Shown: positions 51,620-53,266 of the stretch, piece by piece | How the letters are laid out: each line of letters starts with the position of its first letter | Numbering within the stretch: the first letter of the stretch is position 1 | Assembly: GCF_000026545.1 (NCBI RefSeq) | Contig: NC_011601.1 | Strand: one strand, 5' to 3' | From: Escherichia coli O127:H6 str. E2348/69 | GTDB taxonomy: Bacteria > Pseudomonadota > Gammaproteobacteria > Enterobacterales > Enterobacteriaceae | DNA length: 64,000 bases | The notes under the pieces: model-generated | What the model saw: the letters and a program-made list of their open reading frames with translations, nothing else | The model's database searches: none | What the model was told of the DNA's origin: nothing | Program-made: the position numbers and the translations under genes

Positions 51620-53266
51620 TTAACCCTGCAGCAGAGACAGAACCTGCTGCGGTACCTGGTTGGCTTTTGCCAGTACGGAGTTACCGGCCTGCTGGATAAT
51701 CTGCGCTTTCGACATGTTGGACACTTCGGTCGCATAGTCGGCGTCCTGAATACGGGACTGCGCTTCAGACAGGTTGGTAGTGGTGTTGTTCAGGTTGGTC
51801 ACTGCGGAATCCAGACGGTTTTGCACCGCACCCAGGGAGGAGCGGAATTTGTCGATCTGGCTGATAGCGTCGTCAAGAGCTGCCAGCGGATCTGATGTTG
51901 ATTCTGCTTTGCTAGTCGTATCCGTTGTTAACTTACCATCGGAACCTTTGTAGACCAGTTTCCCGGCAGCCGCATCCTCAGTAGTTGTGATACTTCCATC
52001 AGCTTGTGCATAGTAAGTTGGCGGAGTATCACTGAGAACCCCATTGCTCATATAAGCGGTGTCTGCAGCAGCAGAACCTGTTGTTACGCTATAAGTCTTA
52101 GCACCTACAGTGGCAGTATAAGTGTCATTTTTTACTGCATTTGCAAATGTATTGGCATCAATGGACATTGATGCACCATCAAACGCTGTACCGTCACTGG
52201 TGAATGTTCCTTTATCAGTTTGGATGGTCGCGGCTTTAGCACCAGTAGCAGTAGCAACTTTAGCCAAAGTAGCTTGTGTATCACCACCAGCATTATTTTT
52301 AGTTAAGTTACCGGTAGCATCCATATAAAGTACTGCGCCATCATCAGCAGCAGTTAAATTACCGGATTTATCGATGTTTACATCTTGATCTTTGCCACCA
52401 ATTGTAACTGTAGCTTTAGTCGTATCTCTGGCCTGAGGATTGAGGAAAGCAGCCAGGTTAGCGCTGGAAATATCATCAGAAGCGGCGGAATATGAATTAG
52501 TGTCTTTATTGTAGGTATAGGTTACAGCAGCGGCTGGTGTACCAAAACCAACATCGGCGCTAGTTGTAACTTTATTTCCATCTGCGCCAGCAACAGCATT
52601 TAGAATATCTACGCTACTTGCTACAGCCGATTTGTCAGTATATTGAGTTACACCAACAGTTCCCCCTGGTGCCGCCGCAGCTGTGAATCCAGACATATCT
52701 TTCAGGGTTGCTGCCGTATTAGCCGTTTCCCCTTTGCCGTTCACATTAAACCCATTCAGCCCCAGCGTATCAGAGTCAATTTTCTTCAGATCAATAGTGA
52801 TAGTCTGGCCGTCATTCGCACCAACCTGAATTTTCATCGAACCGTCTTTTGCCAGTACGTTCACGCCGTTGAACTGGGTCTGACCGGATACGCGGTCAAT
52901 TTCGTCGAGACGGGATTTGATTTCGTCCTGAATGGAGTCCAGATCCGAATCAGAGTTAGTCCCGGTAGAAGCCTGAACCGTCAGCTCACGGATACGCTGT
53001 AAGTTGTTGTTGATTTCGGACAGCGCGCCTTCAGTGGTCTGTGCAACAGAAATACCGTCGTTGGCGTTACGTGCAGCCTGAGTCAGGCCTTTAATGTTAG
53101 AAGTAAAACGGTTAGCAATCGCCTGACCCGCGGCGTCATCCTTCGCGCTGTTAATACGCAAGCCAGAAGACAGACGCTCGATAGAACTCGACAGCGCAGA
53201 CTGGTTCTTGTTGATATTATTTTGAGTGATCAGCGAGAGGCTGTTGGTATTAATGACTTGTGCCAT
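51620..53266 (-). CDS. fliC: flagellin (548 aa; conserved termini, non-K-12 central domain)
   Basis: N-terminus [54 protein letters not shown] and C-terminus ...[67 protein letters not shown] are canonical; the middle is Thr/Ala/Gly/Asp-rich and unlike K-12 H48 as I recall it. Confidence 0.9.

Follow-up and report, generated by a model that had tools for sequence, protein, structure and literature searches.

We analysed a flagellin gene carried on a 64,000-nucleotide stretch of Escherichia coli DNA, which is referred to below as the window. The list of open reading frames contained an intact frame of 548 codons plus a stop codon at positions 51620-53266 on the minus strand, corresponding to fliC. 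Its neighbours were fliD (53532-54938, plus strand) and fliA (50580-51299, minus strand), in the same order as in K-12. The features of the gene, of its surroundings and of similar promoter-like sites elsewhere in the window are as follows.

51620..53266, minus strand: fliC coding sequence, H6 flagellin (open reading frame; Pfam domains; 100% DNA identity to E2348/69 fliC, WP_000079695.1; 100% protein identity to PDB 7SQJ)
52742..53266, minus strand: conserved N-terminal segment, amino acids 1-175, one half of the D0/D1 filament core (164 of 175 residues identical to K-12 FliC; core assignment after PMC8931119)
51893..52741, minus strand: hypervariable central region, amino acids 176-458, D2-D4, H6-specific (22.3% identical to K-12; allele distribution; G+C 44.8%)
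51620..51892, minus strand: conserved C-terminal segment, amino acids 459-548 and the stop codon, the other half of the D1/D0 core (86 of 90 residues identical to K-12; Flagellin_C at amino acids 462-546)
52289..52312, minus strand: GNLTKNNA, conserved D4 dimer-site motif, amino acids 319-326 (HMMER alignment to PDB 7SN4, H7)
52244..52255, minus strand: in-frame perfect (GCTACT)2, encoding Ala-Thr-Ala-Thr, amino acids 338-341 (allele alignments)
53343..53369, minus strand: sigma-28 (FliA) class-3 promoter-like site of fliC, TAAAGGTT-N11-GACGATAA (consensus match with 2 mismatches)
53462..53488, plus strand: divergent sigma-28 promoter-like site of the fliDST operon (consensus match with 1 mismatch; fliD starts at 53532)
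51429..51445, minus strand: intrinsic terminator-like hairpin downstream of fliC, CCCCGCC-AAC-GGCGGGG followed by T7 (aligned with the 3' end of the FliX/fliC 3'UTR region of K-12)
51422-51616, minus strand: fliC 3'UTR, counterpart of the annotated K-12 sRNA FliX (b4827) (conserved, with a handful of substitutions)
21450-21476, minus strand: perfect sigma-28 consensus, TAAAGTTT-N11-GCCGATAA, upstream of tar
26036-26062, minus strand: sigma-28 match with 2 mismatches, inside the 3' end of flhC and upstream of motA
29268-29294, plus strand: sigma-28 match with 3 mismatches, inside otsA

The Pfam search identified Flagellin_N (PF00669) at amino acids 5-140 (E 1.4e-46, 158.5 bits against a cutoff of 26.6) and Flagellin_C (PF00700) at amino acids 462-546 (E 5.4e-32, 110.4 bits against a cutoff of 23), as well as the enterobacterial 'FliC' domain PF12445 at amino acids 338-452. 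With both the N-terminal and the C-terminal flagellin domains present, the protein is a bacterial flagellin of the FliC/FljB family. The original prediction, made from the letters of the sequence, had placed a Thr/Ala/Gly/Asp-rich variable region at about 51890-52740. The computed region begins and ends within 3 nt of these positions and consists of 18.4% Ala, 16.6% Thr, 9.9% Gly and 9.5% Asp. Its G+C content was lower than that of the two gene ends (49.1% and 56.0%) and of the 64-kb window (50.5%). Several open reading frames antisense to fliC were also listed, for example a 119-aa frame at 52643-53002 on the plus strand. These were rejected as mechanical artefacts, since they lie wholly inside a gene whose product is identical to a structurally solved protein.

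The sigma-28-like site of fliC lies 77 nt upstream of the ATG. Within the 64-kb window the sigma-28 pattern was matched five times against 0.65 expected by chance, and the match inside otsA is probably a chance occurrence. A sigma-70 scan gave fewer matches than were obtained in shuffles, none of them relevant. Located at the fliD/fliA site and preceded by a predicted FliA-dependent class-3 promoter, which is a consensus match, the gene is assigned to the resident fliC locus. At the other end, the GC-rich hairpin with its T7 tract is likely the fliC terminator. Transcription of fliC would thus run from the FliA (sigma-28) class-3 promoter to this intrinsic terminator, some 175 nt beyond the stop codon. 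A REP-like sequence was found between the stop codon and the hairpin. Scanning of positions 50500-54000 against Rfam returned sub-threshold matches only, namely naRNA4 (41.9 vs 59.5 bits) and ES036 (34.2 vs 37.6 bits), both of which are REP-derived sRNA families, and no match to FliX was obtained in the same interval.

We then compared the protein with FliC of K-12 MG1655 (b1923; 498 aa) by pairwise alignment. The conserved ends that had been predicted for the 548-aa protein were confirmed, with 93.7% identity over amino acids 1-175 and 95.6% over amino acids 459-548. Likewise, the claim that the centre is unlike the 498-aa K-12 H48 flagellin was borne out: only 63 of the 283 residues between amino acids 176 and 458 were identical, and near-identity to K-12 H48 fliC across the central region was not found. 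The DNA gave the same picture. Over roughly the first 480 nt of the gene, identity to K-12 was 0.82-1.00, with the first 120 nt 100% identical. It fell to 0.27-0.52 in the stretch of about nt 540-1380 and was back at 0.93-1.00 from nt 1441; across the centre it amounted to about 35-45% at aligned nucleotide columns. The 3 kb to the left and to the right of fliC were 98.07% and 97.73% identical to K-12, without gaps, so the 'near-identical core' of the original prediction was overstated. E2348/69 is a phylogroup B2 strain and K-12 a phylogroup A strain, and we judge the flank divergence to be ordinary between-lineage divergence within the species.

To place the allele, a collection of 5,426 complete E. 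coli genomes was searched by megablast and blastn. By megablast, the whole fliC gene matched E2348/69 (NZ_CP059840.2) and two further O127:H6 records at 100.0% over 1647 nt, and records labelled O150:H6, O99:H6 and O2:H6 at 99.3-99.8%. Window positions 39001-64000 matched the same three O127:H6 records at 100% identity along the full 25 kb. Moreover, in a string comparison all 64,000 bases of the window agreed with positions 2050719-2114718 of NZ_CP059840.2 in reverse complement, with 0 mismatches. At the protein level, FliC was identical to PDB 7SQJ over 548 aa (also 8CVI and 8CYE) and to 7SN7 over 546 residues, and the central region alone gave a strong match only to H6 PDB chains. E2348/69 is designated O127:H6 in database records. 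With both the window and the gene fully identical to E2348/69, the sequence is assigned to this enteropathogenic E. coli (EPEC) reference strain, or to an isolate that cannot be told apart from it, and the gene is identified as its H6 fliC (WP_000079695.1). The allele is therefore already known, with its sequence in RefSeq and its filament structure in PDB. The original prediction had read a different H serotype from the centre; the 22% identity to K-12 and the 100% identity to O127:H6 fliC support this, and the best matches are O127:H6 fliC rather than K-12 H48. Its further claim, that the strain does not derive from K-12, is supported by the match of the whole window to E2348/69.

The distribution of the allele was examined separately for its parts. 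By megablast, the conserved ends of fliC were matched in 4,519 of the 5,426 genomes, and the central 851 nt in 233, all at 95% identity or more. When blastn was run with the centre, 233 genomes were found at 94% or above, followed by 219 genomes at about 65% nucleotide identity, and none between. Since the centre recurs at this level in 233 complete genomes, it is a real and non-chance feature. The class at about 65% consists of one allele of 554 aa with 75% amino acid identity overall, which is the sole other allele reached by blastn with the H6 centre. A record named O15:H18 ST69 is among its matches, so that it is most likely the H18 type, which would place H18 closest to H6 within this collection. 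The centre thus matches fliC of H6-labelled strains and no other H type is as close, which, judged by these labels, assigns the gene to the H6 type. Conserved ends found across the species and a central cassette differing between H types are the usual population pattern at fliC.

We weighed these results against other explanations of the unusual centre. The original prediction could not place it, and a sequence only 22% identical to K-12 might suggest a new or unclassified H-antigen variant with an undescribed central domain. However, the gene is 100% identical to the deposited O127:H6 fliC and to solved PDB chains, and 233 complete genomes carry the same centre with at least 94% identity, which refutes this reading and leaves it extremely improbable. 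The gene could also be pictured as a K-12 H48 flagellin altered by point mutations or an insertion, and the strain as a K-12 derivative, considering that the first 120 nt are 100% and the last approximately 200 nt 93-100% identical to K-12 and that the gene order is the same. This is contradicted by the centre, with 22% identity in amino acids and about 35-45% at aligned nucleotide columns, by flanks that have diverged by about 2%, and by the identity of the window to E2348/69; the K-12 origin is refuted, and its probability is vanishingly small.

E. coli strains with flagellin loci other than fliC exist. On this general ground, the gene might be taken for an accessory flagellin or an alternative one, either of the flkA/fllA/flmA type or prophage-borne, in which case the expressed H type could differ. 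Phage-encoded flagellin systems have likewise been described (bioRxiv 10.1101/2025.07.22.666180). Such a flagellin would be encoded away from the fliC locus, but the gene studied here sits at the canonical fliD/fliA site, and megablast with this fliC gene found one place per E2348/69 record. Among 50,697 phage records there was no match to the H6 centre, and in PLSDB the only 'plasmid' matches were two misfiled chromosomes. These two records, NZ_CP141089.1 and NZ_CP134663.1, are 4.9 Mb each and evidently E. coli chromosomes, the former being also present as a chromosome in the E. coli genome collection, so their flagellin matches do not denote plasmid carriage. With neither a phage match nor a true plasmid match, a mobile-element origin was rejected. 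From these searches the gene is taken to be the resident chromosomal fliC and not a mobile accessory flagellin, and we consider the accessory explanation very unlikely. The explanation that we hold with near certainty is that the gene is fliC of EPEC O127:H6 E2348/69, encoding an H6 flagellin with core-forming ends and the surface domains D2-D4.

Other features of the window are readable against the annotated E2348/69 genome. The RefSeq annotation shows the arabinose ABC transporter permease gene araH split by an IS4-like ISEc13-family insertion (30505-33050, transposase at 30901-32274). With araH interrupted, the strain presumably lacks an active AraFGH high-affinity arabinose transporter. 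Between tar and cheR, where K-12 carries the chemoreceptor gene tap, a frameshifted remnant of 152 nt (19560-19711) is annotated as 'Tar ligand binding domain-containing protein', and tap looks essentially deleted. The yedD gene is annotated as frameshifted (57337-57749). In the yedL-fliE interval, a 141-nt integrase fragment (60978-61118) stands in place of the yedN/intG pseudogene region of K-12. The original prediction had pointed to a 'novel IS' and to missing K-12 islets as further signs of a strain other than K-12. The former was imprecise, given the annotated ISEc13-family element in araH, while the missing islets do include tap and the yedN/intG region; both are better reread as known differences between EPEC and K-12.

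Within the H6 class, we identified a length polymorphism at the Ala-Thr repeat, which lies twelve residues past the D4 motif. Alignment of four H6 alleles showed 2 copies of GCTACT in E2348/69, 3 in AR_0015, 5 in Z1002 and 10 in GN06667, and the length differences of the other three alleles arose from this repeat. The matches of the H6 class to the 851-nt query were 851, 857, 863, 869, 887 or 899 nt long, in 6-nt steps that fit the repeat unit, and the two-copy length was seen in about half of 40 evenly spaced H6-class matches. In fliC, Tandem Repeats Finder listed no repeat, as two copies of a 6-mer are below its threshold. The variation may simply reflect a historical indel, or it may mark a slippage-prone spacer. 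We consider it rather doubtful that (GCTACT)n works as a spacer whose length varies by strand slippage and thereby adjusts the packing of the outer-domain sheath or the surface antigenicity of H6 flagellins; if this were true, the flagellin gene would harbour a small contingency-like locus.

The proposed organization of the H6 filament follows from the parts of the protein. Amino acids 1-175 and 459-548 would fold into the coiled-coil domains D0/D1 and polymerise into the filament core, while the central 283 residues would form the surface-exposed outer domains D2, D3 and D4 and define the H6 antigen, as is usual for the centre of a flagellin. The low G+C content of the centre (44.8%) and the discontinuous distribution of its identity suggest that the central cassette was acquired by recombination or horizontal exchange.

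The assembly of the outer domains can be described from published work on the identical protein. The EPEC O127:H6 filament was modelled by cryo-EM in 7SN7 and 7SQJ (Kreutzberger 2022, PMC8931119), and a filament sheath is reported for the protein of these entries, to which the present FliC is identical. In that study the D0/D1 core follows canonical flagellar symmetry, with a rise of 4.813 A and a twist of 65.534 degrees, whereas D2-D4 form an outer-domain sheath made of tetramers (PMC8931119). The contacts described are D2-D2 dimers between Sn:Sn+11 and Sn:Sn+6 and D4-D4 dimers between Sn:Sn+22, and a seam in the sheath breaks the overall helical symmetry (PMC8931119). In the protein encoded here, D2-D2 and D4-D4 contacts would accordingly be expected to give tetramers and, from these, an outer-domain sheath with a seam.

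For the H7 flagellin, mutation of N319 and N323 in the D4 dimer-site motif disrupted the sheath and reduced motility (PMC8931119). HMMER alignment against 7SN4 placed N320 and N324 of H6, within GNLTKNNAG, opposite these two residues. By this alignment H6 carries the two D4 asparagines that characterize outer-domain-sheath (ODS) flagellins. EPEC H6 flagella have also been reported as adhesins, and H6 monomers to increase TLR5 activation (PMC8931119); mediation of adherence by E2348/69 flagella is similarly reported (PMC9032864). The H6 flagellin is of biological interest for its seamed, sheathed filament and its reported roles as adhesin and TLR5 agonist. Since all of this biology has been published for the exact sequence, the present observation adds nothing new to it.

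Compared with known flagellins, the gene shows no difference from fliC (H6) of E2348/69, being identical in DNA (1647/1647), protein (548/548), locus and flanks. The allele of the O15:H18 record, shared by that record and 218 other complete genomes, has the same architecture and a centre that is alignable throughout, but differs in its about 65% nucleotide identity there, in several small indels and, judging by the label, in serological type. FliC of K-12 MG1655 occupies the same locus in the same promoter and terminator context and has ends 94-96% identical to those of H6, whereas its centre is 22% identical and 50 aa shorter; K-12 FliC carries Thr at the second Asn position of the D4 motif and thus lacks that Asn. 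The K-12 filament is described as canonical and non-sheathed (PMC8931119). The flagellin of EHEC O157:H7 (7SN4, 585 aa) shares with H6 the conserved D0/D1 ends, three outer domains, sheath formation and the D4 dimer motif GNLTxNNAG, although the H6 centre aligns with it weakly and on its own does not reach E<=1e-3. The sheath of H7 is dimeric and helically symmetric, whereas that of H6 is tetrameric and has a seam (PMC8931119).
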